Source: Candidatus Versatilivorator sp. (GTDB lineage: Bacteria; Acidobacteriota; Terriglobia; Versatilivoradales; Versatilivoraceae). From it: a stretch of DNA of 64,000 bases. The notes below the pieces were generated by a model. That model saw only the letters and a list, made by a program, of their open reading frames with translations. It was not told where the DNA came from and did not search any database. Within the stretch, counting starts at the first letter, position 1. Every line of letters starts with the position of its first letter. This document shows positions 47,456-63,530 of the stretch, one piece after another. The stretch covers positions 3,744,001 to 3,808,000 of the forward strand of contig OZ242296.1 in the NCBI GenBank assembly GCA_965207735.1, given 5' to 3'. The translations under genes and the position numbers were made by a program.

Positions 47456-47592
47456 CAAGACTTGGCACGGCTTCGGCCTCTTATCGAAAGGGAATGCACC
47501 ATTGCTTCCATTCCGCTACAGTAACCATTTTTGACCAAGCTTGTTATTCCTGCTAGGATGGATGTCTGTGCTACCGCGTGGAGGTCTGGTCA

Positions 47593-47865
47593 ATGAATGT
47601 GTCTCTTACGTCGGAACTTGAAGCGTTTGTAGCAACCAAGGTGCGGAGTGGGCGCTACCATTCGGCCAGTGAGGTGATTCGTGAGGCATTGAGGCTGCTG
47701 GAGGAGCGTGAACAGTTGAGAGCCCTGAGAATTCGCGCACTACGGAAGAAAATTGGCGAAGGATTGGAGCAACTGGATCGCGGCGAAGGAATTGCCGGGG
47801 AGTTGATATTCTCCGAACTCGAGGCTGAGTTGGGCATCCTGGAACAAACCCGGCACGAAGATTGA
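47593..47865 (+). CDS. parD: ParD-family antitoxin
   Basis: MNVSLT.ELE.FV..KV.SGRY.SASEVIREALRLLEE. Confidence 0.93.
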   Translation: MNVSLTSELEAFVATKVRSGRYHSASEVIREALRLLEEREQLRALRIRALRKKIGEGLEQLDRGEGIAGELIFSELEAELGILEQTRHED

Positions 47866-48152
47866 GTCGATACCTTCTTTCCCCAGCCGCGGTTCAAGAC
47901 CTCAGAGAAATTCAAGCCTACATTGCACGGGACAGCACTGACGCAGCCCGGCGGGTGGTCACTCGACTTCGCACGGCTTGCGAGCGACTCGCACGGAATC
48001 CGTTTATGGGACATTGTCGCGAGGATTTGACAGATCAACCGGTATTATTCTGGCCCGTAGGAGTGTATTCAGTCATCTATCGCCGAGAGACCACGCCTCT
48101 GGAAATCGTGCGGGTGTTGCACGGATCTCGGGACATTCAGAATCTGGTGTAA
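47862..48152 (+). CDS. parE: ParE/RelE-family toxin
   Basis: A.QDLREI..YIA.DS..AA, P.MG..R, IVRVLHGSRD; overlaps parD. Confidence 0.92.
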   Translation: MSRYLLSPAAVQDLREIQAYIARDSTDAARRVVTRLRTACERLARNPFMGHCREDLTDQPVLFWPVGVYSVIYRRETTPLEIVRVLHGSRDIQNLV

Positions 48153-51315: not shown

Positions 51316-51940
51316 GGTTAACCGCGACGGGGTACCAAGATCGCGAAGGGATGGTCGATTTCTGATTGTTTCACTCTCGGATGATCCGCCCGGCAGGGCG
51401 GGGTCCTCGCTTGCCTGAAACAACCCCTTGCGCCGGGTGGCTGGAGACCGGCTCAAGGTCAAGCATGGGTAGTTGGTTTATTCACATGGATGCACAGGAT
51501 GCACAGGGTTTTTTCTGAAGACGGCTGGCTTGCAGTCCTGGACATCCGCAAATCCGCACCGGATCTTCGCCCGAGTTGGCTTCTGGTGCAGGAAGCTCTC
51601 GTCCTGTAAATCCTGTGTATCCTGTGCATCCATGTTAATTATGAGCCTTTTGCAAATATCGCAATCGGGAATGACGTTGAGGCGGCAAGGATGATGTGCT
51701 GCAGGCTCCAGCATTCACCACGATAAGCACAAGAGACAACAGAAACCACAAAAAGCACAAGAGGCACAAAACGGGTTTCTTGATTTCGAGACTTGCCGAT
51801 CGGATGGTTCTTTTTGTGCCTTTTGTGGCCATTCCCGGCAAAGGTCCCGCTGCCGAATTTTGCAAACGCCTCGACAAAAGAAAAAGAGTGATCCACGAAG
51901 AACGACGAAGGGCCACCAAGAGAAGACGGTGATCCGTGGG
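51228..51940 (+). repeat. Composite repeat cluster (unit A, unit B, MITE-like element, partial A)
   Basis: A 51228-51403; B from 51416 with arms 51484/51602-51635; TIR-bounded 51643-51872; partial A from 51873. Confidence 0.85.
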
Positions 51941-51949
51941 CAAGATCCA

Positions 51950-53446
51950 CTACCGTACCGAATTGGTTACTTTCATGGGCGGTTCGTACTGAGCCTGATC
52001 GGACTTGAGCATGTATGAGTTCGAGCGGCGCCCCGCTATCGTTATTCTGTCGCGCAAGTCCCGGCCGCGAACCCAGCGGATGGTCGAATAGTGGAACCCG
52101 TAAGGAGAGCGAGGTGCGGAATCGAAAGGAACATAGGTGAACCATTGGGACTTGGAGCTGAGAACCCAGCCGCCTCGGTTTTGATAGCCGAAGTCGGGGT
52201 AGGCGGAATTCCGGCTCGCCAAAGAGAGACCGGCGTTCACCTGGACTAGTTGGCGGGCCCGCCGCTTGCTCCACAGGTTGAGGGGGTCCTTTCGGTGGTT
52301 CTTGTCGAGGCCTGCCGATCTCGGCTTGAGCGAGGGAGATGAATTTGCGAGGAGCCAGCGCCTGCCGGATTTCAGTTGGGTTCTCCTTCCCCCCGCTCCT
52401 TTCCACAGAACTCTCCCGTTGTAAATGGAAAGAGCCGATTCCTGCCCGGGCACGACATCGAGCCGGTACAAGCCCCTGGTCTCCATTTGAAGCTCGCCCG
52501 ATGGAGTGGACAGGGTAAGGGAATGGATCTTGGGGTTCAAGCTGGCCGACTCGATGATGACGGTGCCCTGGACCACCCGGAACCGCATGCCCCTGTAGGT
52601 TGTGTCCATCACCTCGATCTCGCTGTCTTCGGTGACTCTCAGGTAGGTCCCCGGGCTCAACAGCAACTCCGCCCGGCTGTTGCCGTTTGTCCGCAAATCG
52701 CTTCCGGCCTTGATCCGATAGCCGGCATTGGCCCGTACCGGTTGGGTCGCCGCTGGAACAGAGACCAGCGGACGCCGTCCCCAGAAGCAGTTCACCAGGA
52801 AAGCGGAGCGTTCCTTTGCCCAGGAATCCAGTGTGGCCCACTCATACTTGTCCATGCGGCTGACGGAGGGAGTCTCCGCCAAGGGGTCCAGTGAATAGTG
52901 TCTGCTCTGGCTCAACTCGGATCGCTGCCCCCTGAGTCCCAGCCAGGACAATCGCCCGGAGAAGACCGTGACCCCGACCGGTCGTTTCCGATGGACCCGG
53001 ATCCGGTAGAAGCCGGGACGAACTACCCGAAGGCCTCCCACCGGGGTGGAAATGGTCGAGACCTGGTGCTTTTCCCTGGTTCTGGCGGAATCGACCACCA
53101 CCTCTCCCTCCACCAACTGGAAATCCATGGCGGGGTAGTCAGCGGTCAAGACTTCCAGTTGAGCCTGTCCGGAGACGCGCAGGTAGCTGTTGGCGGACAG
53201 GACGATCTCGACGCGGTCGCCCGGCCGAGTGTGCACCTGCTCCCCCCTCTTGAGCCGGCGCCCCGCCGGCAAGGGCTCGGGTTGCGGGCGTCCGGCCCCC
53301 AGGACAGTGGGACCTCCGCTGACGTGCCTGACAAACCCAGGCCGGGCGTCGGTCACCGCGGCCGAAGCACTTGGAGTCCTTGGAAATGCCGGGGAAGAGC
53401 CGTGGATCAACAGTCCAAGGACGCCAATCGCAAGGAGCACTCTCAT
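51950..53446 (-). CDS. Exported protein with two tandem FecR-like domains
   Basis: Twice ..T....R.E..LS...YLRV....EV......F....G.V...S...STP.G......G.YR; signal peptide MRVLLAIG. Confidence 0.8.
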   Translation of the reverse strand: MRVLLAIGVLGLLIHGSSPAFPRTPSASAAVTDARPGFVRHVSGGPTVLGAGRPQPEPLPAGRRLKRGEQVHTRPGDRVEIVLSANSYLRVSGQAQLEVLTADYPAMDFQLVEGEVVVDSARTREKHQVSTISTPVGGLRVVRPGFYRIRVHRKRPVGVTVFSGRLSWLGLRGQRSELSQSRHYSLDPLAETPSVSRMDKYEWATLDSWAKERSAFLVNCFWGRRPLVSVPAATQPVRANAGYRIKAGSDLRTNGNSRAELLLSPGTYLRVTEDSEIEVMDTTYRGMRFRVVQGTVIIESASLNPKIHSLTLSTPSGELQMETRGLYRLDVVPGQESALSIYNGRVLWKGAGGRRTQLKSGRRWLLANSSPSLKPRSAGLDKNHRKDPLNLWSKRRARQLVQVNAGLSLASRNSAYPDFGYQNRGGWVLSSKSQWFTYVPFDSAPRSPYGFHYSTIRWVRGRDLRDRITIAGRRSNSYMLKSDQAQYEPPMKVTNSVR

Positions 53447-53580
53447 GGGAGGACCTGCCGTCGAGACGAGACTTTTGGGGCGCAATCGATCTCCACAAAG
53501 CATACATTTTTCGTCTGGAGGTTGCGCTCAAAAAATGCTAGCATTCAATCGATATTTTGGCTTTTTCGGCAGGTTTCTTC

Positions 53581-55446
53581 ATGAAGGTTATCCGTTCCAA
53601 TTGGCTGCCTTTTCTGGTTGTCCCCACAACGGCCCTGGTCGTAGCGGGCGCTCTTTGGGCAGAATCAAGGCAACTGGACCGGACCGTCCATTGGGTGATC
53701 AAACCGGTTCCTGCTCTCTCCAACATCGCCCCCAATTCCTCCCCGTCACGCGACTCCACCCTCACTATAACCGTGAGCGGCGACGGGTTCGTGGACGGTG
53801 CCTCGCTGGTGCAGTGGAACGGGGAAGACCTGCCCACCACCTTCGAGAGCACCAGCGAACTCACGGCTCGCATCTCCCCGCAACACCTATCCACCCCGGG
53901 AGACGTCGCCATAACCGTTTTCAATCCCGAGCCGGGTGGCGGGACTTCTACCTCGATGACCTTCACCGTCACCGAAGGGCAACCCTCCCTGGATCTGTTC
54001 GTGCCGGTGGTGGTGTCCGTGTCGGGAGTCAATAATTCCTTCTTTACCTCGGAGTTGACCCTGACCAACAAGACCGAAACTGCGGTCACCCTGAGTCTCC
54101 GATACACCGCCACGCCCAGCAATGTAACCGGGCGGGTATCCGATGTTCAATTGTCCCCGGGCCAGCAAATCGAATCCAACGCTATTGAATACCTGAGAGG
54201 CCTGGGATTGCCCATTGCGTCCTCGGGCAATCGAGTGGGAACGCTGATGGTGCGGGCCGTGGGGACTTCTTCGCCCGCGGATGTCGCCGTGACGGTCAGA
54301 ACCAGTTCGCCCGTGCCCGAGGGACGAGCCGGGCTTTCCTATATGGCTGTGCCGGTGGCCACCGATGCTCTTACCGGGCCGTCCTACCTCTGCGGCCTGC
54401 GGCAGAATGAGACCGATCGGACCAACGTGGCCGTGCAGCACGCGGGGGCTTACGGAAACATCACCTTGCGTGTCAGCCTCTATTCGGGGGATGCCGCGTT
54501 GTCCGATCCCCAACTGGTTTCGGAGGTGGCATTGCCGCCGGGGGGATTCAAGCAGTTCAATGGTATTTTGCATTCGCAAGGTCTGAAGCTCGACCAGGGC
54601 TACGTGAAAATCGAAAGGGTGTCCGGGGAAGCGCCCTACTATGCCTATGCGGTGATCAACGACCAGGCCAATTCCGACGGTTCCTTTGTGGCTCCCGTTC
54701 GGGAAAACTGGATGGCCGGGCGTTCCGGCTTGACGCTTCCGGTTGTGGTGGAGGCCGGCGCCTACCTCAGCGAGGTGATCGTTTCCAATTGGTCCTCCGA
54801 GGACAAGGCGTTGACGTTTGATTTCGTCGATAGTGACATCGCCGGCGGGAAACTCTCCTTTTCGATGGACATCGAGTCGGGCTCGCAGCAGATCCTGGGA
54901 GAATTCATAGAGCAGCTCCGCCAGTCCGGTTTTGAAGCCGATTTGCCGCCGGGGAGGGCCTATGCCGGCCCCTTGATGGTTACGGTCGACGGAGACGGGG
55001 ACGGGATATTTCTGGGAGCCCGAACCATGTCACCGGGAGGAGGGGGCCATTACGGCGTTTTCTACCTGGGGGTTCCCACTGGAGCCGAGTTCAGCACCGG
55101 GGCCTGGTTGTATGGACTGCAGCAGGATAGCGAAGACCGCACCAATTTGGCCCTGCTGACGACTTCGAGCGCGAACGACGAGGCCAATGTCTATGACATC
55201 GATCTCTACGACGGAGCTACAGGCCTCATGGTGAAGACCCTCAGCCGGCAAGTTTCTGCCAATCAATGGGACCAGATCGGAATGATCTTGGCGCAGGCCC
55301 GAATATCCCAAGGCTACGCCCACGTCAAGCGAACGGCTGGAGCCAACGACTTCATTACCTACGCGGTGATCAACGACGGGGGAAAGCCGAATGAACGCAG
55401 TGACGATGGGGCCTTTGTCTTGGGAGTTGCGGACATTGCCCAATAG
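53581..55446 (+). CDS. Secreted IPT/TIG-domain protein with duplicated beta-rich C-terminal domain
   Basis: P.LS.I.P...TITV.G.GF...V.WNG..L.TTF.S.SELTA.I...NP.PGGG.S; two RTN.A...YAVIND...DG.FV repeats. Confidence 0.8.
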   Translation: MKVIRSNWLPFLVVPTTALVVAGALWAESRQLDRTVHWVIKPVPALSNIAPNSSPSRDSTLTITVSGDGFVDGASLVQWNGEDLPTTFESTSELTARISPQHLSTPGDVAITVFNPEPGGGTSTSMTFTVTEGQPSLDLFVPVVVSVSGVNNSFFTSELTLTNKTETAVTLSLRYTATPSNVTGRVSDVQLSPGQQIESNAIEYLRGLGLPIASSGNRVGTLMVRAVGTSSPADVAVTVRTSSPVPEGRAGLSYMAVPVATDALTGPSYLCGLRQNETDRTNVAVQHAGAYGNITLRVSLYSGDAALSDPQLVSEVALPPGGFKQFNGILHSQGLKLDQGYVKIERVSGEAPYYAYAVINDQANSDGSFVAPVRENWMAGRSGLTLPVVVEAGAYLSEVIVSNWSSEDKALTFDFVDSDIAGGKLSFSMDIESGSQQILGEFIEQLRQSGFEADLPPGRAYAGPLMVTVDGDGDGIFLGARTMSPGGGGHYGVFYLGVPTGAEFSTGAWLYGLQQDSEDRTNLALLTTSSANDEANVYDIDLYDGATGLMVKTLSRQVSANQWDQIGMILAQARISQGYAHVKRTAGANDFITYAVINDGGKPNERSDDGAFVLGVADIAQ

Positions 55447-55595
55447 AACCGTTGCTCATTCGTCCCTTGGATTCCCGCCATCTGCCAACCACCCCAACCC
55501 TGTTTTCAAACGCTCCGGTTGCGGAGCATCCCGACGAGGCTGATCGGATAGACCCGGACCGCCTTTCCTATCCCTACTCGTCCCGAAACCGCACG

Positions 55596-57776
55596 GTGAT
55601 TTTCGGCCGAATCGTCCCTCGAGCCCGGCGCCTTCTGCTTCTTTGGTTGCTCTGCGGTCTGCCCATCCAGGCGCAGAGGCCGGTCGGTAATCCTCACCAG
55701 CCCTCGCTACGGCCTCAGCCTTTCCAGCGGGCGGAAGCCTGCCTGCCCTGCCACCGGCGCCAGTACGACGAGCTACGCAGCTCGGTCAAGTCCGGCTACC
55801 GAAGCGTCAGCTCGGTGTTCAACGCCTTGGAGTTGTCCGGAAACTTTCTGAGCGGTGGGCGGCTGCGGCCGGTCTATGGAGACAGCAACAAGGTTACCGC
55901 CATTGACGTCACCGGCGTGGCCGGTCAGGGAAAGCCCCTGAACACCAACATGAACAGCGCCGACACCTTTAGTCACATCAACCAGGTGCAGGCCGCCTTC
56001 TGCATCGGATGCCACAACCCGCATATCGTGTTGATGGGGGAAGATCCCGAGCAAAGGGAAATCCCCGAGTTGGAGGAAGTGGGCGGAAAATTTCGGCCGG
56101 ATCTGATTCGTCCCTTGCGGGACTTCCATTTCGTGGACAACTCCAATCGACAGGTTTTGCCGGAGGAAATCGGTGGACCGGCTCCGCCGGGGGCCAGGCC
56201 TTCGCTGGGAGCCCAGGGAATCAACTGCGATGTCTGTCACGATATCACCGCCCCGGACTTGGATCGCAGCCCCAACCGCGACGGTCTTGCCAATTCCAGC
56301 TTCGAGCTGATCCCTTCCATCAGCAAGATCGGTCCCTTTCTGTTTCCGGCGCCGGTCAAGAACAATTTTCACTTTGCCAGCCGCGACCCCGATCAAATCG
56401 GCTATTTGCGGAGCAGCGACTTCTGTGGCAGTTGTCACGATGTCCGAGTTCCTGGAGACGGATCTGGGTCGTTGACCCACCGCGAGATCAGCCAGAACCC
56501 GGAAAGTCGAAGCGTCAGTCTTTTTCGTCTCGAAAACCTGAACACCGAGTGGATGACGGGCCCCTACAACAGCACCCAAAACCCCTTCGGCCGGGTCGTT
56601 CGTTGTCAGGACTGTCACATGTCCCTGTTCCCCTATGGCCAGGAAAGCACTTACGAGGTAGGGGAACTGGAAGTCACCAGTCCCACCCCGGGCCAATTCC
56701 CCTTGAACTTCGCGGCCGTACCTGGCATTTCGACGGACCTGAACTATCCCCTGCAACAGCGGCCGGTGGTGACGCACTACATGACCGGGGTGGATGTGCC
56801 CATTCTGAGGACGGATGAGTTGCGGGCCCGTCTGGGCCAGGACTACCCGGATGTCAATGAGCCGGGAGTGGATGAATACGGGATTCCGCTGTCTCTGGCC
56901 CAGCGGCGCGAGGATCTCTTGAAGGCTTCGGTTCGAATCAATCTGGACAAGTCCGACCGGACGGCACAACTCGGCCGGCCCCTGATGGTCAAGGTGACGG
57001 CAGTGGCTCTGACCGGCCACCGATTTCCGGCAGGGTTCTCGCAGGAACGAACGGCTTACATCCAGCTCTCCGTCCGGGACAACAAGGGATTTCTCATTTA
57101 CCAGTCCGGGTATGTGGTGGACAAGCCCCACCCGGAGGTGGGCGAGATGGCTCCCGATGGGAACCTGGACGATGAAGATCCCGAGCACCTTCACGCAGTG
57201 GTCGACCCCGGGCATCCCGCGGACGTCTACCGTGTGGGGCAATTCACCAATGGACATCGGAATCAGGTGTTTCAGTCGGGTCCGGACAACGGCCCCGACG
57301 CCCGAATCTTCTTCGGCAGACCCAGCGGCCTGGTGCTGTGGCGCAACGAGTTGACCCGGGTCTTCCTGCCCGGGGAAAGCCTGGGGCGTTTCAACGAGCA
57401 GGGCGATCCTATTCGTTTGACCCGACCTCACATGGAGGAAACCTTCAGTGCGGTTCTGGCGAACTCGGTCGACAACTATCGCTCGCTACCCCCACTGCAG
57501 CCCAGGACCTACGCCTATGAGGTGGTGCTTCCGACCCGGGAGGAACTGCAACTGCTTGGGGTTGGAGAGCTGGAGTCGCCTCTCCACGTCCAGGCCCAGG
57601 TCAACTTCCTTCACTTTCCGCCGTTGTTTCTGCGCTTCATGGCCAGAACCACCAGCACAGAGGGCCCGGGGGGACGGGATTACCACTTGATCGATGAGAA
57701 GCTCATCGACGATCTCCTGGTAAATGTGCGCGGCATCGCATCGGCGGACCGCACCATCGACTTGGTGGAGCCATGA
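55596..57776 (+). CDS. Pentaheme c-type cytochrome with large heme-free C-terminal domain
   Basis: CLPCH, CIGCH, CDVCH, CGSCH, CQDCH; GHRFPAG; signal peptide; start uncertain (track 55452). Confidence 0.88.
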   Translation: MIFGRIVPRARRLLLLWLLCGLPIQAQRPVGNPHQPSLRPQPFQRAEACLPCHRRQYDELRSSVKSGYRSVSSVFNALELSGNFLSGGRLRPVYGDSNKVTAIDVTGVAGQGKPLNTNMNSADTFSHINQVQAAFCIGCHNPHIVLMGEDPEQREIPELEEVGGKFRPDLIRPLRDFHFVDNSNRQVLPEEIGGPAPPGARPSLGAQGINCDVCHDITAPDLDRSPNRDGLANSSFELIPSISKIGPFLFPAPVKNNFHFASRDPDQIGYLRSSDFCGSCHDVRVPGDGSGSLTHREISQNPESRSVSLFRLENLNTEWMTGPYNSTQNPFGRVVRCQDCHMSLFPYGQESTYEVGELEVTSPTPGQFPLNFAAVPGISTDLNYPLQQRPVVTHYMTGVDVPILRTDELRARLGQDYPDVNEPGVDEYGIPLSLAQRREDLLKASVRINLDKSDRTAQLGRPLMVKVTAVALTGHRFPAGFSQERTAYIQLSVRDNKGFLIYQSGYVVDKPHPEVGEMAPDGNLDDEDPEHLHAVVDPGHPADVYRVGQFTNGHRNQVFQSGPDNGPDARIFFGRPSGLVLWRNELTRVFLPGESLGRFNEQGDPIRLTRPHMEETFSAVLANSVDNYRSLPPLQPRTYAYEVVLPTREELQLLGVGELESPLHVQAQVNFLHFPPLFLRFMARTTSTEGPGGRDYHLIDEKLIDDLLVNVRGIASADRTIDLVEP

Positions 57777-58621
57777 TCAGAAGGGAAATACATCTTTTGG
57801 CCACCCTGGGACTCCTGATCGCGGCCCTCTCCCTTTGGATCGGCTACGGGGAAGCCTGGTCGCAGAACGGTCAAGCCGGAGCCCCCAAGCGCAACCCCAA
57901 CTACCTGGATCGAAACCCCTTTTACTTTGAGGGAAAGGTTGACTACGAGCTGTTGGGTATCGATCAGCCGGTGGATGCCTGGGAGTTCATGCAACGAGGG
58001 ATCCACCGCCAGGACGATCTGGAGGATCGAGAAGGAGCCATTCAGGACTACCGCGCCGCCATCGAACGCAACAACCCGGACAACGGCACCTGTCAGATTG
58101 TGAAGGCCTTGCCTTCAACCACCCTCGAGTTCCAGCAGCTCACCCCGCCGCCCTGCCTCTTCACTCCGCGGCTCAGGCTGGGCTATCTCCTGCTCCATGA
58201 GGACCCGGTGCAGGCCATCGAGCTCTTCCGCCAGGTGACCGACATCGATCCCCAGCGGTTGGAGGTCAATGCGCTCATTGGCGAAGCCTACGAACTGCTG
58301 GGAGACCAGACCTCGGATTCCGAGGACAAGAAAGCCCATTACCTGGAAGCGGTCCGTGCGCTCAATGCCGAGATGGTGCTGTCACCGGTCACTGAGCTGA
58401 CCCGGCGTCTTACGGGTGACGAGGCCAACAATGCCCACGCCCACTGGATGTTGGCAAGGATTCAGGAGAAGTTGAACAACCATGGAGAGGCGCTGTTTGA
58501 GCTCGATCAATATCTAAAGGCCACCCGGTGGCACAGCGACGTCTACCCCTGGCGGATTCCCCTGGCCCAACGACGCATGGAGCAATTGAGAGCGCGCCTG
58601 GGGCCATCTTCGGGAAAATGA
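57773..58621 (+). CDS. Exported TPR-like protein
   Basis: Signal peptide; helical repeats; ATGA overlap with the cytochrome gene. Confidence 0.75.
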   Translation: MIRREIHLLATLGLLIAALSLWIGYGEAWSQNGQAGAPKRNPNYLDRNPFYFEGKVDYELLGIDQPVDAWEFMQRGIHRQDDLEDREGAIQDYRAAIERNNPDNGTCQIVKALPSTTLEFQQLTPPPCLFTPRLRLGYLLLHEDPVQAIELFRQVTDIDPQRLEVNALIGEAYELLGDQTSDSEDKKAHYLEAVRALNAEMVLSPVTELTRRLTGDEANNAHAHWMLARIQEKLNNHGEALFELDQYLKATRWHSDVYPWRIPLAQRRMEQLRARLGPSSGK

Positions 58622-58827
58622 AGGAGAGTCATCGATGAAAGAATTCTCCTTTAGGGGAACGCAAGGGTTGCCTTTTGAGTAATCTTGGCCGGCTTGAGAT
58701 ACTGCCTTCCGACAGCCGTCCTGTCCCGGTCGGCTGGGCAACCAACGGGTCATCGATCAGGCTGTTGCACCGGATGCATGATTTGCCGCCGGGCGGGGTT
58801 TGGTCCACAAAGGTTTGGTGAGCAAGC

Positions 58828-60408
58828 ATGGCGTCCCGCACTGTCACATTGCCTGCCGCCGTGGTTGGCTTGTGCCTTTTCGCCTACTCCCAATCGTCCC
58901 AGCCTACTATCGAAGAAGCCTGGAATGACCTGTTGGGCAGTCCCGCTCACGGTAGCACCAAGAGCCTTCTGGTCTCCCCGGAACCTTCCGCCCCCAAGAG
59001 TTCCGGGCAGGATCTTTCCGACCATTTTTTCTACAACACCCGTTCCGAGTATGTTCACCAGCACGCCACCTTCAGCGGCCTGCCCACCCTGACCGGCGTC
59101 GTCGACCGCGAGCCGGGACCGGTGGCCGATCCCGAGGCCATTCCTTTTCCGGGTGCTTTTCAGCCTCACTCGGGCCATTTCTACTCGTCAATGAACTGGG
59201 GAACCCGGGGATGGCTTTCGCCGCGAATCAATACCAATTTTTCCCTCCGCTATCGCCAGGACCTGTGGGACCTGGACATCGGCTCTCCCGCCCGGTCGGT
59301 GGCGAATACGTTTTCAGGGAATCGGCTCTTCGAGCTGACCACCGGCGTGGTCGAGTTGAACGGGTTGACCGGGCAGGGGACTCTTGGCGATTCGACCCTG
59401 CGCCTGGGCCGGCAGAACATCTACGGCGCCGAGATGGCGACGGTGGACGGATTTTCGTTCGCCCTGGATCGGCCGAAGTACCGGGTAAATCTTTTCGGAG
59501 GCCGGCGCTTTACCTATTACTCCAACCCACGGCAGCGGGCCATCGGTGGCGGAAGCCTCGGTTTCCGGCTGCCGGGAGGCGGCAGCTTCGAGTACCAGGG
59601 CCTGTTCTATGTCAAAGGGATCCACCGGTTGGTTTTTCGCCAGCCATTGGAGCCCTCCTGGAGGGTGGGGGCTCACTACAAATCGGTCGGTTCCAGGCCC
59701 GTAGACCTTGGCGCCTACCTCGGTTACCTGCCTGAAGACGGGCGTACGGGAGCACGGTTCACCTTTGCCCAGAAGCTGTCCCAACACGACTTCATCTATG
59801 ATTACACCGTTTGGATTAGAGACCGGGATTCCTTCAATCGCCTGAGGCGACTGAACTTCGGCATTATTTCGCCCCACCGTCAGTTTTCCGTCGAGGCCCA
59901 TAGGCAGATTTTCGAGGCGGCCACGGTGGGGGGAGCCGTTTGGGTGCGTCGCTTGAATCGGGATAGCGATGCCGGTCCCTTCGACACCTCGTTTGAGGAC
60001 TATCGAACCCATCTCAAGCTGTTCCCTCTGCGACGAACAACCGTGCTGTTGGAGTTTCACCGCCGGCGCACCGACCGCCCCAGCCCTCTTGGGATCCAGG
60101 GCTTCGACGATGTGCGCAACGCCGGTGAGACCCGCGTGCGGGACGTCGGCCTTGAAGTCAGCCGCTCCTTCGGCGACGACCGACTGGGGCTTACCCTCGG
60201 GGGCTACCACCGAGAGATCGACTTGCAGAATCGATTCTTTTTCATAGACAGAGCCCATGTTTTGGGCGCCACCGGCGGGGCCTGGTTTCGGCTGGATCGC
60301 CGCACCCGCCTCTACTTCCGTTACGGGCTGGATGAGGACTTCAACATCTTCAGACCCAGCCTGCAACGATTTCGAACCTATCGCATGGGATTGGACTGGA
60401 AGCTCTGA
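58828..60408 (+). CDS. Putative outer-membrane beta-barrel protein
   Basis: Signal peptide, alternating aromatic/Gly/Arg-rich strands, LRLGRQ, terminal strand YRMGLDWKL. Confidence 0.7.
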   Translation: MASRTVTLPAAVVGLCLFAYSQSSQPTIEEAWNDLLGSPAHGSTKSLLVSPEPSAPKSSGQDLSDHFFYNTRSEYVHQHATFSGLPTLTGVVDREPGPVADPEAIPFPGAFQPHSGHFYSSMNWGTRGWLSPRINTNFSLRYRQDLWDLDIGSPARSVANTFSGNRLFELTTGVVELNGLTGQGTLGDSTLRLGRQNIYGAEMATVDGFSFALDRPKYRVNLFGGRRFTYYSNPRQRAIGGGSLGFRLPGGGSFEYQGLFYVKGIHRLVFRQPLEPSWRVGAHYKSVGSRPVDLGAYLGYLPEDGRTGARFTFAQKLSQHDFIYDYTVWIRDRDSFNRLRRLNFGIISPHRQFSVEAHRQIFEAATVGGAVWVRRLNRDSDAGPFDTSFEDYRTHLKLFPLRRTTVLLEFHRRRTDRPSPLGIQGFDDVRNAGETRVRDVGLEVSRSFGDDRLGLTLGGYHREIDLQNRFFFIDRAHVLGATGGAWFRLDRRTRLYFRYGLDEDFNIFRPSLQRFRTYRMGLDWKL

Positions 60409-60481
60409 TTCGAACCTGTAGCAAGATTCCACTCTCTGTTGTTTCATGAAGATGCTCGATTCCGGATATTGCAAAAGGCTC

Positions 60482-61780
60482 ATGAGAAAGCGCGTGTCCC
60501 GACTGGTCGGCCTGATGCTGCTAACTGCCTCCGGGGTGGCGTTGACCTTTAACCACGGTGGCGCCGAGGAAACCCGCGCCGGTTCCACCGACTACCACTT
60601 GCATGATCGCCACGTGGGGCAACTTGGCCTGGAATGCAATGACTGCCATGTGCCGAAGCAACCGGAATCGGTGGTCCTGGCCCGGCCGGGCCACGCTCAA
60701 TGCCTCTCCTGTCACCCGGAGGACTTTCAGGGCCTACCGGGTGTTGACCTCTGCCAGGCGTGCCATGCCGCCTTGCAACCCACGGGCTCCGACGACCTGC
60801 GTCCCTATCCCGAATTCAGCAAGCCCCAGGCGCTCCTGTTCCGCTTCTCTCATGCACAGCACCTGGACAAGACGGAGCGCCTGGATCCGGCTACCGGGTT
60901 TCGCGCCGACTGCACCTTTTGCCACAAATTTGAGGGAGAGGGGGATTTCGCAGGATTTCCCGGTCATGCTGAATGCGCCGCTTGTCACTCCAAGCCCAAC
61001 ATCCTTCCCGACCTCACGGCCAAGTCCACCAGCGCCGATTGCAGGCAGTGCCATGGTGCGGTTGAGCGAGAAAACCCGGGCTTCAGCAAGGAGCGGCGCC
61101 TGGCAGGGACTCACCAGGAATCAGGGGCGGCGGTAAACCTGAAATTCGCCCATCTGCCCCATCTCCAATCAGACGGGGCGGAGCGTATCTCGTGCATCAC
61201 CTGCCACTACGAAATCCCACAGAGTGAGCGCCTCGCCGATCTTAGCCATCCGGATGTTCTGGACTGCGTGGCTTGTCACGACGGGCAGCAGGAGTTGGTG
61301 TCCCATTTCAGGATGGAAGACTGCCAGGCCTGCCACCTCGACGCTCGGGAGGGAGTCCTGCCTGCCAGCCACAGCCGCAGCCTGAAGCCCCTGTCCCACA
61401 CCGCAGGTTTCCGAAGGCACCACCAGGAAGAAGCCTCGGCGGGGAATAGCAAGTGCTTCGTTTGCCACACCCATGTGTCGCCTGCTGTTCGCACGGGGGG
61501 AGATTGCGCCGCTTGCCACCAGGTCATGCGACCCCTTTCCCACACGGCGCGCTGGCGCGATGCCATCCATGGGAAGCAGGCGGCCCTGGACCGCCAGGCG
61601 TGCGCCGTTTGCCACACGGCCGACACCTGTTCCCGATGTCACAACCAACTTCCCAGAAGCCACTTTCCGCTTGCCTTGTTCAAGGCCGGAGCTCACGCCG
61701 ATATGGCCACCTTGCAGTTGCGTTCCTGCTTTACCTGCCACACCTTCGAGGACACCTGTGCAGCCTGCCACTTGCCGTAG
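60482..61780 (+). CDS. 15-heme c-type cytochrome (c3/c7-like plus diheme repeats)
   Basis: 15 CxxCH counted; FSHAQH and FAHLPH c3/c7-type His motifs; N-terminal hydrophobic signal; alternative start 60446. Confidence 0.93.
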   Translation: MRKRVSRLVGLMLLTASGVALTFNHGGAEETRAGSTDYHLHDRHVGQLGLECNDCHVPKQPESVVLARPGHAQCLSCHPEDFQGLPGVDLCQACHAALQPTGSDDLRPYPEFSKPQALLFRFSHAQHLDKTERLDPATGFRADCTFCHKFEGEGDFAGFPGHAECAACHSKPNILPDLTAKSTSADCRQCHGAVERENPGFSKERRLAGTHQESGAAVNLKFAHLPHLQSDGAERISCITCHYEIPQSERLADLSHPDVLDCVACHDGQQELVSHFRMEDCQACHLDAREGVLPASHSRSLKPLSHTAGFRRHHQEEASAGNSKCFVCHTHVSPAVRTGGDCAACHQVMRPLSHTARWRDAIHGKQAALDRQACAVCHTADTCSRCHNQLPRSHFPLALFKAGAHADMATLQLRSCFTCHTFEDTCAACHLP

Positions 61781-61799: not shown

Positions 61800-63011
61800 A
61801 TGAAACGCAGAGAGTTCCTGGCTGCCGCGACCGCCACTCCGGCAATGCTGCTTGCCCGCACCGGGGCCGGTGGAACGCCGACCGAGTCAGGGAAGAATTT
61901 CTTGATGGAGCACGGTTTTTGGGACTATACCACCCCGGGCGCCGGAGGAATGGAGTCTTACGGGCAGGACGACTATCTCTCCCTGCTCGACGACATGGCC
62001 GGGGCGGGCATGAACTCCCTGATGATCTACGTGAAGTGGCTGACTACGGGTTACCGGTCCCGACTCCCGTTCCAGGATCAGTCTCCCGAAAACCCGGTCA
62101 TCGCCTCCGACAATTCCCTGCTGCAGCGGACCATCGAGGAGGCGGGTCAACGGGGGATCAAGGTCTGGCTGGGAGGCGCGGTGACCTATTTCGACACCTC
62201 CAGGTTTCGAGCCGATCCCTACCGAACTTACACTCGGTTGAGCGGATTCGATCTGCCGGTGGAGGTGGGGTTGTTCGATACCGACACCCCAGGGCTCAGC
62301 GAGCGCATCGTTCAGATCTACGAGGAACTGGTGGAGCTGTTTCCGGGCGCCGGGGGCCTGGAGGTGGAGCTTGAAGGGGCCGGAGTCGAGAGCGCCCGCC
62401 GAATCCCGCTCTATGATCGATGGGCCCGGGAAAACGGGCGTCCGCCGTTTGTGGAGCTGGGCCACCCGTTCAACCCCCGATCGTTCGATGTTCCCGACTG
62501 GCGGGACTACACCACCGATTCCCGCCTGAGGGTGCTCCGGGCCGTAGAAGATGCCGTGCGGGCCAAGGGGTTTCGGGGGGACCTGGCGACGATCTGCGAA
62601 ACGGGCTCCAGGCCCTACGCCCTGGGTCAGGCCGTCAACCTGAGGGAATTCCACAGGCGCTTTCCCGATTGGACCGCCACCACCTACGAGTACGACAAGT
62701 GGAACCACCGCTATGGGATGATGGATCTCTGCATCGACCATCCCAAGCGGGAAGGGGTCCAGGTGTTTTATCTCCCCCGAGGAGTCATGACCTGGGGAAG
62801 CCGGTGGCCCCTGCCGATCGCCCTGGAGCAAAGTTGGCGGATGGACCTGGAAGACATTCGAAGATTCAAGCCCCGGGGAGTCTGGTGGTTCGGAAGCGGG
62901 GGACGCAGCGAGGGCGCTCACGTGAGTCTTGCCAGGCTGAAGCAGTCCGGCTTCAGCAGCGGCAAGGAGGCGCGGCGGGCCTTGCTGAGGGCGGCTTCGG
63001 AACTTGTCTGA
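61800..63011 (+). CDS. Tat-exported TIM-barrel-like hypothetical protein
   Basis: MKRREFL signal; LDDMAGAGMN, A.QRGIKVWLG pattern. Confidence 0.72.
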   Translation: MKRREFLAAATATPAMLLARTGAGGTPTESGKNFLMEHGFWDYTTPGAGGMESYGQDDYLSLLDDMAGAGMNSLMIYVKWLTTGYRSRLPFQDQSPENPVIASDNSLLQRTIEEAGQRGIKVWLGGAVTYFDTSRFRADPYRTYTRLSGFDLPVEVGLFDTDTPGLSERIVQIYEELVELFPGAGGLEVELEGAGVESARRIPLYDRWARENGRPPFVELGHPFNPRSFDVPDWRDYTTDSRLRVLRAVEDAVRAKGFRGDLATICETGSRPYALGQAVNLREFHRRFPDWTATTYEYDKWNHRYGMMDLCIDHPKREGVQVFYLPRGVMTWGSRWPLPIALEQSWRMDLEDIRRFKPRGVWWFGSGGRSEGAHVSLARLKQSGFSSGKEARRALLRAASELV

Positions 63012-63378
63012 AACAAACGACAAACGACAAAAGACAAACGACTTATCCACGAAGGGGCACGAAGGACCACGAAGGGGCACTAAGGCGCTGAGGTTAACCG
63101 CGACGGGGTACCAAGTTCGTGAAGGGTTGATCGATTTCTGATTGTTTCACTCTATGTATGATCCGCACACCAGGGCGGGGGCCCGGCTTGTCTGAAACAA
63201 ACGACAAAAGACAAAAGAAAAAGACATTTTCACGAAGGGGCACGAAGGAACGACAAAGGACCACTAAGGCGTTGGGGTTAACCGTGACGGGATACCAAGG
63301 TTAGGAAGGGATGATCAATTTCTGATTGTTTCATTCTCGTATGATCTGCTTATCCTGTCCATCCTGTGCATCCATGTT
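63003..63378 (+). repeat. Two tandem copies of unit A plus an orphan palindrome arm
   Basis: CTTGTCTGAAACAA at 63003 and 63187; TTGTTTCA at 63142 and 63326; ATCCTGTCCATCCTGTGCATCCATGTT at 63352. Confidence 0.9.
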
Positions 63379-63530
63379 GAATGAATGGTCCTTCTCGATG
63401 GATCTACCCCGTCGCGGCGGTGAGGGGGCAGGGTTCGCGAGCAAACCGGGAGTTTCCCAAAGGGCGCAGGCCGGCTTTCAGCGAAGTCACCCTCCGGAAA
63501 CTTTCAACCGTACTATTGGGACGACACCAC

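Follow-up and report, generated by a model that had tools for sequence, protein, structure and literature searches.

A conserved four-gene module of the porin-cytochrome kind in Acidobacteriota, with a barrel of an unnamed family and an MccSep-fold pentaheme protein of altered active site

What does an acidobacterium do with a predicted outer-membrane barrel whose gene lies directly before that of a 15-heme cytochrome c? The question is raised by a 64-kb stretch of DNA (the window, that is, the whole stretch analysed) on contig OZ242296.1 of the 5.26-Mb genome of Candidatus Versatilivorator sp., a genus that lives in sponges. A reading of the letters alone (the sequence-only reading) had proposed here a new electron conduit of six genes, five of them co-oriented and encoding an IPT/TIG protein, a pentaheme protein (H5), a tetratricopeptide repeat (TPR) protein, a beta-barrel and a 15-heme cytochrome (H15), with a tandem-FecR gene divergent from them. 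We found all six open reading frames in place, five on the plus strand and the FecR gene opposite, with the predicted barrel gene directly before the 15-heme gene. The 20 CxxCH motifs are divided between H5 (five) and H15 (15), the other four proteins having none, and Pfam recovered two FecR stretches, one TIG domain, TPR repeats and, in three stretches of H15, c7-type heme repeats. The module is real and conserved; it is of the porin-cytochrome kind, and it combines a barrel of an unnamed family with an MccSep-fold protein of altered active site. On balance, we favour the view that its four core genes (H5, TPR, barrel and H15) specify a new porin-cytochrome conduit across the outer membrane together with its own periplasmic pentaheme enzyme.

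Which of these genes travel together? A barrel-based scan of GTDB genomes yielded 29 loci, of which 10 were close (72-88% identity) and 19 more distant (38-45%), the latter from Bryobacterales, Acidiferrales and unnamed Acidobacteriota. Genome samples gave 12 further regions; two duplicate loci were dropped, as was one weak barrel-profile match (G489, E 3e-6) around which the module was absent, leaving a final set of 10 own-genus loci and 28 loci outside the genus. By barrel sequence, the closest relatives bear the labels Candidatus Versatilivorator or Terriglobia. H15 follows the barrel directly in all 10 own-genus loci (one frameshifted) and in 26 of the 28 outside loci (one cut by a contig end), and this adjacency survives several rearrangements of the remaining genes. 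TPR lies directly upstream of the barrel in nearly all loci, and H5 and TPR are found wherever the contig extends far enough, H5 standing before or after the barrel-H15 pair. Still more distant barrels gave alignments that were too divergent for scanning loci; one such protein, used singly, led to a further locus (L049). There, too, a 15-heme homologue comes after the barrel, whose identity is only about 30%, and H5 was not seen in the 3.9 kb visible around this barrel. The co-conservation of barrel and 15-heme gene therefore held up in 36 of 38 related loci plus this one, and what is seen is the general hallmark of porin-cytochrome systems, an outer-membrane barrel gene adjoining a co-conserved multiheme cytochrome gene.

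The distribution of the module is patchy. Of 41 genomes around our own, 13 have both the barrel and H5 and 28 have neither, counts that come from kin and are not independent. Both occur in 11 of the 13 other species of the genus and in none of 11 other genomes of the family; the module was found in three of 400 genomes of a phylum sample and in nine of 387 genomes of the class outside the genus, spread over five families.

The same loci show that the unit consists of four genes, not six, because the TIG and FecR genes occur in none of the 28 outside loci, the FecR gene has gaps in the genus itself and the main domain of the TIG protein is present in 37 genomic copies. Among own-genus loci long enough to show them, the TIG gene precedes H5 in eight of eight, and the FecR gene is missing from three of eight; the FecR protein also has two paralogues elsewhere in the genome. 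Neither the dedicated surface scaffold that the sequence-only reading had seen in the TIG protein nor its assignment of the FecR pair to the system is supported by these comparisons. The TIG protein ends in a domain of about 460 residues without a Pfam match, which also ends the other members of a set of 37 proteins of the genome (37-48% identical) and is possibly an expanded surface-protein or sorting domain of the genus. The TPR protein, whose gene start overlaps the H5 stop by 4 bases, has two nearly invariant cysteines, C107 and C128 (each in 32 of 33 homologues), which are likely to form a disulfide, and a conserved WHSD.YPWR motif; it is likely an adaptor or chaperone. The 206-base spacer between TPR and barrel (58622-58827) is 71-80% conserved in five relatives, with no conserved open reading frame seen in it; it is shorter in L001, divergent in L006 and almost fully deleted in L002, L003 and L009.

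We modelled the barrel with AlphaFold2 from 116 homologues, four partial rows among the 120 listed having been left out. The model (mean predicted local distance difference test score, pLDDT, 83; predicted template-modelling score 0.73) has 22 strands across residues 67-525, with long loops on one side and short turns on the other, so that the protein does model as an outer-membrane-type barrel, shorter than MtrB, as had been predicted. Barrels with 22 strands in the outer membrane normally carry a plug domain. Here the barrel begins about 40 residues past the signal peptide, and because TonB receptors match it no earlier than where their own barrels begin (their residue 134 or later), no plug domain is encoded. 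Fold searches returned generic outer-membrane barrels only (ushers, TonB receptors and porins, Z 15-17.5); electron-conduit porins other than MtrB were not listed in them, which excludes nothing.

By sequence, the barrel stands equally apart. It has no Pfam or NCBIfam match at E 0.05, and a profile search across 1.84 billion representatives brought up 250 proteins at E 0.001 or better; 48 full-length distant homologues had no Pfam match, and 38 distant homologues searched in NCBIfam gave nothing but one unrelated weak match. Sequence searches of the PDB with H5, the barrel and their profiles gave nothing useful. Look-alike unnamed barrel clusters in the Atlas, commonest in Acidobacteriota, Myxococcota and Deferribacterota, serve as a lead only. 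As judged from these searches, the barrel is a member of an unnamed family. It lies outside the MtrB/PioB family, matching neither MtrB_PioB (PF11854) nor the NCBIfam MtrB/PioB models, and PF11854 has no match anywhere in the genome. No OmbB or ExtB/E family or chain appeared among the family and fold matches of the barrel, in libraries that may not contain those porins.

H15 is the richest in hemes among the 24 open frames with at least three CxxCH motifs in the whole genome, and since its 15 motifs are kept in 28 homologues, this count is not due to chance. The first nine hemes form three c7-type triheme repeats, and the last six lie within about 135 residues. Sixteen histidines outside the motifs are conserved in at least 85% of 29 sequences, a number that would suffice for 15 bis-His hemes, as in wire-type cytochromes. 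H15 has a signal peptide that lacks a lipobox, and none was found in its homologues either (29 sequences). It is not a decaheme MtrA, in agreement with the first description of the locus: it has 15 hemes with c7-type repeats and no match to the DmsE decaheme model, and by sequence it gave only weak heme-motif matches in the PDB. Three complex predictions of the barrel (residues 55-526, alignment A1) with H15 (residues 44-444) scored 0.21, 0.54 and 0.01 (median 0.21, against a mark of 0.32), a result that speaks neither for nor against a conduit.

H5 is a protein of about 700 residues with a Sec-type signal peptide and no lipobox. Its AlphaFold2 model (pLDDT 84; 117 sequences, four partial rows left out) has one clear fold match, the penta-heme cytochrome c552 of Thermochromatium tepidum (5ZE8; Foldseek E 2.4e-10; Z 17.2; root-mean-square deviation 3.4 over 355 residues), the next matches having Z 8.7-9.4. 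According to the parts of its description available to us, MccSep/ExtKL is a periplasmic polysulfide reductase of this c552 fold, with a His/Cys-ligated heme 2 and a catalytic selenocysteine (Sec), Sec325 (PMC13510729). We aligned H5 with MccSep-type proteins, namely a Sec-type homologue from an acidobacterial genome (568 bits; L050:1486-2835, minus strand, genome G059, a gene with an in-frame TGA) and 23 further pentahemes, and hhalign gave 99.6-99.9% over the full length. The two families differ at three places. First, Lys113 of H5 takes the place of the histidine of the MccSep S-x-H motif, in a well-aligned block. Second, Phe529, likewise in a well-aligned block, occupies the position of Sec325. 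Third, no cysteine lies between hemes 4 and 5 of H5; by register with MccSep and 5ZE8, it is Leu360 or Glu361 that corresponds to MccSep Cys239. All of these residues are invariant in the 117 sequences, and because of them H5 is, on the evidence of the alignment, not MccSep. It reaches 14 bits against NF040886, for which the cut-off is 250.

In place of the Cys/Sec site, H5 has other conserved features. GH.FP.G followed by FSQER is present in all 114 of the 117 sequences in which the motif is readable. His307, His442 and His523, invariant in the same alignment, may be the three remaining distal ligands, His307 and His442 being matched by motif position only. One heme of H5 would be His/Lys-ligated, and heme 2, with the invariant RLENL and FSQER segments lining it, would be open or have Glu as a ligand. 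It is also the most conserved core protein outside the genus, with a median identity of 56% (n=22), compared with 50% for H15, 49% for TPR and 42% for the barrel, as would be expected of an enzyme. The earlier suggestion that the pentaheme protein is a terminal catalyst thus stands in part: fold and conservation are enzyme-like, and the protein, given its missing lipoprotein signal, is more likely periplasmic than a terminal reductase of the outer surface. A plasmid collection gave no match to H5. Two tandem H5 paralogues, 46% and 58% identical to H5 of the window, occur at L016:12950-17543. A second, more divergent TGA-containing pentaheme was seen in another genome (L051, G084), and a pentaheme-like match in 25 of 401 genomes of the phylum.

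Where might electrons enter or leave such a module? In 21 of the 28 outside loci, inner-membrane or cytoplasmic redox cassettes are added to the core. Fourteen have a NapC/NirT-type tetraheme, a membrane protein with a cyclic nucleotide monophosphate (cNMP) domain and a monoheme cytochrome c, often with a fusion of type II NADH dehydrogenase (NDH-2) and cNMP domain and in several arrangements; six of the 14 are near-identical kin. Seven have a Ptd-like cassette, with a cNMP-[4Fe-4S] protein, a membrane protein and multiheme genes, in variants with a multiheme-flavin adenine dinucleotide (FAD) fusion or, in four of the seven, a decaheme plus a NuoEF-like gene. The remaining seven loci, three of them on short contigs, have neither cassette. 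The inner-membrane electron link is not encoded beside the module in the window's genome, and most cassette genes were not found elsewhere in it with queries from the soil loci. We considered a NapC-type tetraheme with an octaheme neighbour, about 370 kb away (G000:3433008-3435146), as an obligatory partner, and rejected it because it does not co-vary with the module. This tetraheme gene (G000:C1:3433008-3435146; L044:7009-9078) adjoins an HAO-like octaheme gene (PF13447) near a molybdopterin oxidoreductase, and is present in 11 of the 13 other species of the genus. A heme lyase of the CcmF/NrfE type is encoded in the window's genome.

The conduit that we favour builds on the observed gene content, heme counts, co-conservation, conserved ligands and cassettes of the relatives, and on the model-predicted folds of the barrel and H5; electron transfer across the membrane would follow from this anatomy and gene context. 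In such a conduit, the barrel would hold the compact C-terminal six-heme part of H15, and the c7-type N-terminal hemes would reach into the periplasm. The compact part could fill the unplugged barrel in the way described for MtrA in MtrB in the portions of that work consulted (PMC7096707). H15 would exchange electrons with H5 in the periplasm and also with the quinone pool, the NapC/NirT-type tetraheme and the small cytochrome c acting as intermediaries at those loci that have them. H5 is the predicted periplasmic enzyme, acting at heme 2, and TPR the predicted adaptor. The insertion of H15 in the barrel, the location of H5 and its catalysis, as well as the direction of flow and the substrate, are points that we infer.

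Several observations weigh against such a conduit. The module contains no surface lipoprotein cytochrome of the MtrC/OmcB type, and a lipobox-like motif is present in only seven of 117 H5 homologues. In the fold search with the barrel, MtrB ranked 25th (Z 14.1), and no electron-conduit porin was singled out. The own-genus loci have no redox partner cassette, and the distant NapC-type gene had no match in two module-bearing relatives and was present in two module-lacking ones. In two outside loci from another class (L045 in genome G190 and L048 in G385), H15 is not nearby; the barrel is truncated or interrupted there, H5 and TPR are also broken in L045, and the two modules look decayed. An NDH-2-cNMP gene is divergent at these two loci, and a transposase-like open reading frame lies beside one of them. 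Finally, the Geobacter MccSep, in the accounts as far as they were accessible, sits beside a porin proposed to pass substrate, not electrons (PMC5877670, PMC13510729).

This last point leads to the alternative that survives best, although we consider it rather unlikely: a solute channel with a periplasmic enzyme, as proposed for Geobacter ExtI/MccSep, in which no electrons cross the outer membrane. The barrel would then admit the substrate or release the product, H5 would convert it, and H15 would be a periplasmic wire from the inner membrane to H5. The homology of H5 to MccSep, itself a periplasmic enzyme encoded next to a porin, fits this arrangement, as do the absence of a lipoprotein among H5 and H15, the long conserved outer loops of the barrel, which could narrow the pore, and the inner-membrane or cytoplasmic nature of the partner cassettes. 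It is the gene order that argues otherwise, in that the constant neighbour of the barrel is H15, whereas H5 is mobile around the pair and was not in the stretch visible at the most distant locus. Moreover, ExtI is predicted, in the available part of its description, to have 12 strands (PMC5877670), compared with 22 here, and 22 strands without a plug would make a very wide pore for a small anion.

Clearly improbable, in our estimation, is an export or assembly channel, by which TPR and the barrel would move H5 or H15 to the surface as a surface cytochrome or filament. Translocons made of a TPR protein and a barrel exist (Slam), and the nearly constant place of TPR upstream of the barrel would suit one, as would the presence of the usher pores FimD and PapC among the best fold matches; these, however, are tied with TonB receptors and porins and reflect barrel size only. 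Small pentahemes of the H5 fold are reported to have a heme arrangement like that of the archaeal nanowire AvECN (PMC11976967), yet H5 itself, with its length, large insertions and invariant pocket, fits an enzyme better than a filament subunit, and a folded 70-kDa cytochrome would be large for a 22-strand pore. The six-gene reading, in which the TIG protein is a scaffold at the surface and the FecR pair takes part in signalling, is very improbable and, as a general architecture, already largely refuted by the outside loci, even though the TIG gene precedes H5, 150 bases upstream on the same strand, in all eight own-genus loci long enough to show it.

How does the conduit that we favour compare with known systems? 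The nearest described layout is Ptd (ptdABCDEFG), a putative porin-cytochrome operon of marine bacteria (bioRxiv 10.1101/2023.11.21.568154), which we compared by its description, as far as available, and by the 5ZE8 fold rather than by the PtdA and PtdB sequences. Its pentaheme PtdA has a C-terminal beta-sandwich, is related to T. tepidum c552 and is encoded near a porin, and the cNMP-[4Fe-4S], membrane and multiheme/FAD-oxidoreductase genes of the seven outside loci fit the descriptions of PtdC-PtdG. In contrast, neither a TPR protein nor a 15-heme cytochrome belongs to Ptd as there described, and PtdC-G-like genes are absent from the window and were not found in its genome with the soil-locus queries. 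MccSep/ExtKL and the Geobacter extHIJKLMNOPQS cluster share with our module, by the accessible parts of their descriptions, five hemes and an Ig-like domain in a pentaheme homologous over its full length, encoded with a porin and larger multiheme cytochromes (PMC13510729, PMC5877670); H5, by contrast, lacks counterparts of Sec325, Cys239 and the S-x-H histidine and is about 280 residues longer. T. tepidum c552 is 20% identical to H5 and keeps both the cysteine at the Cys239 position and the S-x-H histidine, which H5 has lost.

With MtrCAB, PioAB and MtoAB, the module shares a layout in which the gene for a barrel lacking a plug lies next to that for a bis-His multiheme cytochrome that has no lipid anchor, as far as the sources show (PMC7096707, PDB 6R2Q); it differs in having no MtrB_PioB or decaheme match, 15 c7-repeat hemes and no surface lipoprotein cytochrome. 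The 22 strands of the barrel compare with 26, or a predicted 28, in these systems. The module is therefore neither MtrAB nor MccSep. Sequence-divergent porin-cytochrome clusters named EET1 and EET2 have been described from peat Acidobacteriota of the Terriglobia; Bryobacterales are among them, and these come from peat data sets (SPRUCE) that also contain some of our loci (bioRxiv 10.64898/2026.05.27.727921). Their cytochromes have 8-13 hemes (OmcE-, MtrC-, MtrA- and OcwA-like), compared with five and 15 here, and the main text, by which alone the two are set apart, names no 5-heme, 15-heme or TPR gene. For Holophaga, only MtrB- and ExtB/E-type clusters are reported in the portion available (PMC7399161). 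A description of the four-gene module was not found in the literature searched, which did not extend to most subscription papers.

The genes are listed below. From the sequence, the start of the TIG gene is likely ATG 53581 and that of H5 likely GTG 55596. A scan for promoters and terminators gave fewer sites than in shuffled sequences.

Table 1. Genes of the locus, in positions of the window
Feature	Positions	Strand	Basis	Status
Tandem FecR-domain protein (FecR x2)	51950-53503	-	Pfam	Divergent, genus-specific, dispensable; not core
IPT/TIG (choice-of-anchor Z repeat) protein	53557-55446	+	Pfam/NCBIfam	Genus-specific neighbour; not core
H5, pentaheme cytochrome c with C-terminal Ig-like domain	55452-57776	+	5 CxxCH; AlphaFold2 fold	Core
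TPR, exported TPR protein	57773-58621	+	Pfam TPR_19, E 4.7e-9	Core
Barrel, predicted 22-strand outer-membrane beta-barrel without plug	58828-60408	+	AlphaFold2 model	Core
H15, 15-heme cytochrome c	60446-61780	+	15 CxxCH; PF14522 in three stretches, E 5.6e-18	Core

Around the module, we noted the following. Twenty bases past H15, there is a gene at 61800-63011 (+) whose product has a twin-arginine-like leader and matches GHL6 weakly; the gene is kept in nine of 10 own-genus loci and in none outside. From 63381 onward (G000 3807381-3809609) an 8-heme protein is encoded, and in relatives TPR and FG-GAP/ASPIC-UnbV genes come after it; 7-8 heme proteins of that type are numerous in the genome, with about ten similar frames. 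The intergenic regions 51316-51949 and 63011-63400 are made up of a repeat family that is scattered over the genome, where they have 750 and 680 blastn matches, and that resembles repetitive extragenic palindromic (REP) sequences or miniature inverted-repeat transposable elements (MITEs). Two short overlapping open reading frames at 47578-48152 (+), read from the sequence, resemble a ParD/ParE antitoxin-toxin pair.

Previous surveys of extracellular electron transfer use MtrB, OmbB and ExtB/E/I profiles, according to the part of the survey consulted (PMC7399161), and because the barrel matches none of the curated families searched, such surveys would miss this module. Its bearers include most species of one genus as well as abundant uncultured Acidobacteriota of soil and peat, and extracellular respiration is an open question in these Acidobacteriota. 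Strong conservation and an active site unlike that of its relative MccSep, a newly described enzyme of sulfur respiration, make H5 a direct and expressible target in the search for a new heme-catalysed reaction. We speculate, tentatively, that the barrel family and the 15-heme wire form an independently evolved conduit hard-wired to a new kind of multiheme enzyme of MccSep fold, in which the Cys/Sec chemistry has been replaced by an open or Glu-ligated heme 2, the FSQER loop and a Lys-ligated heme. If this were true, the soil, peat and Versatilivorator-type Acidobacteriota would couple an extracellular electron donor or acceptor directly to a periplasmic redox reaction that has so far not been described.

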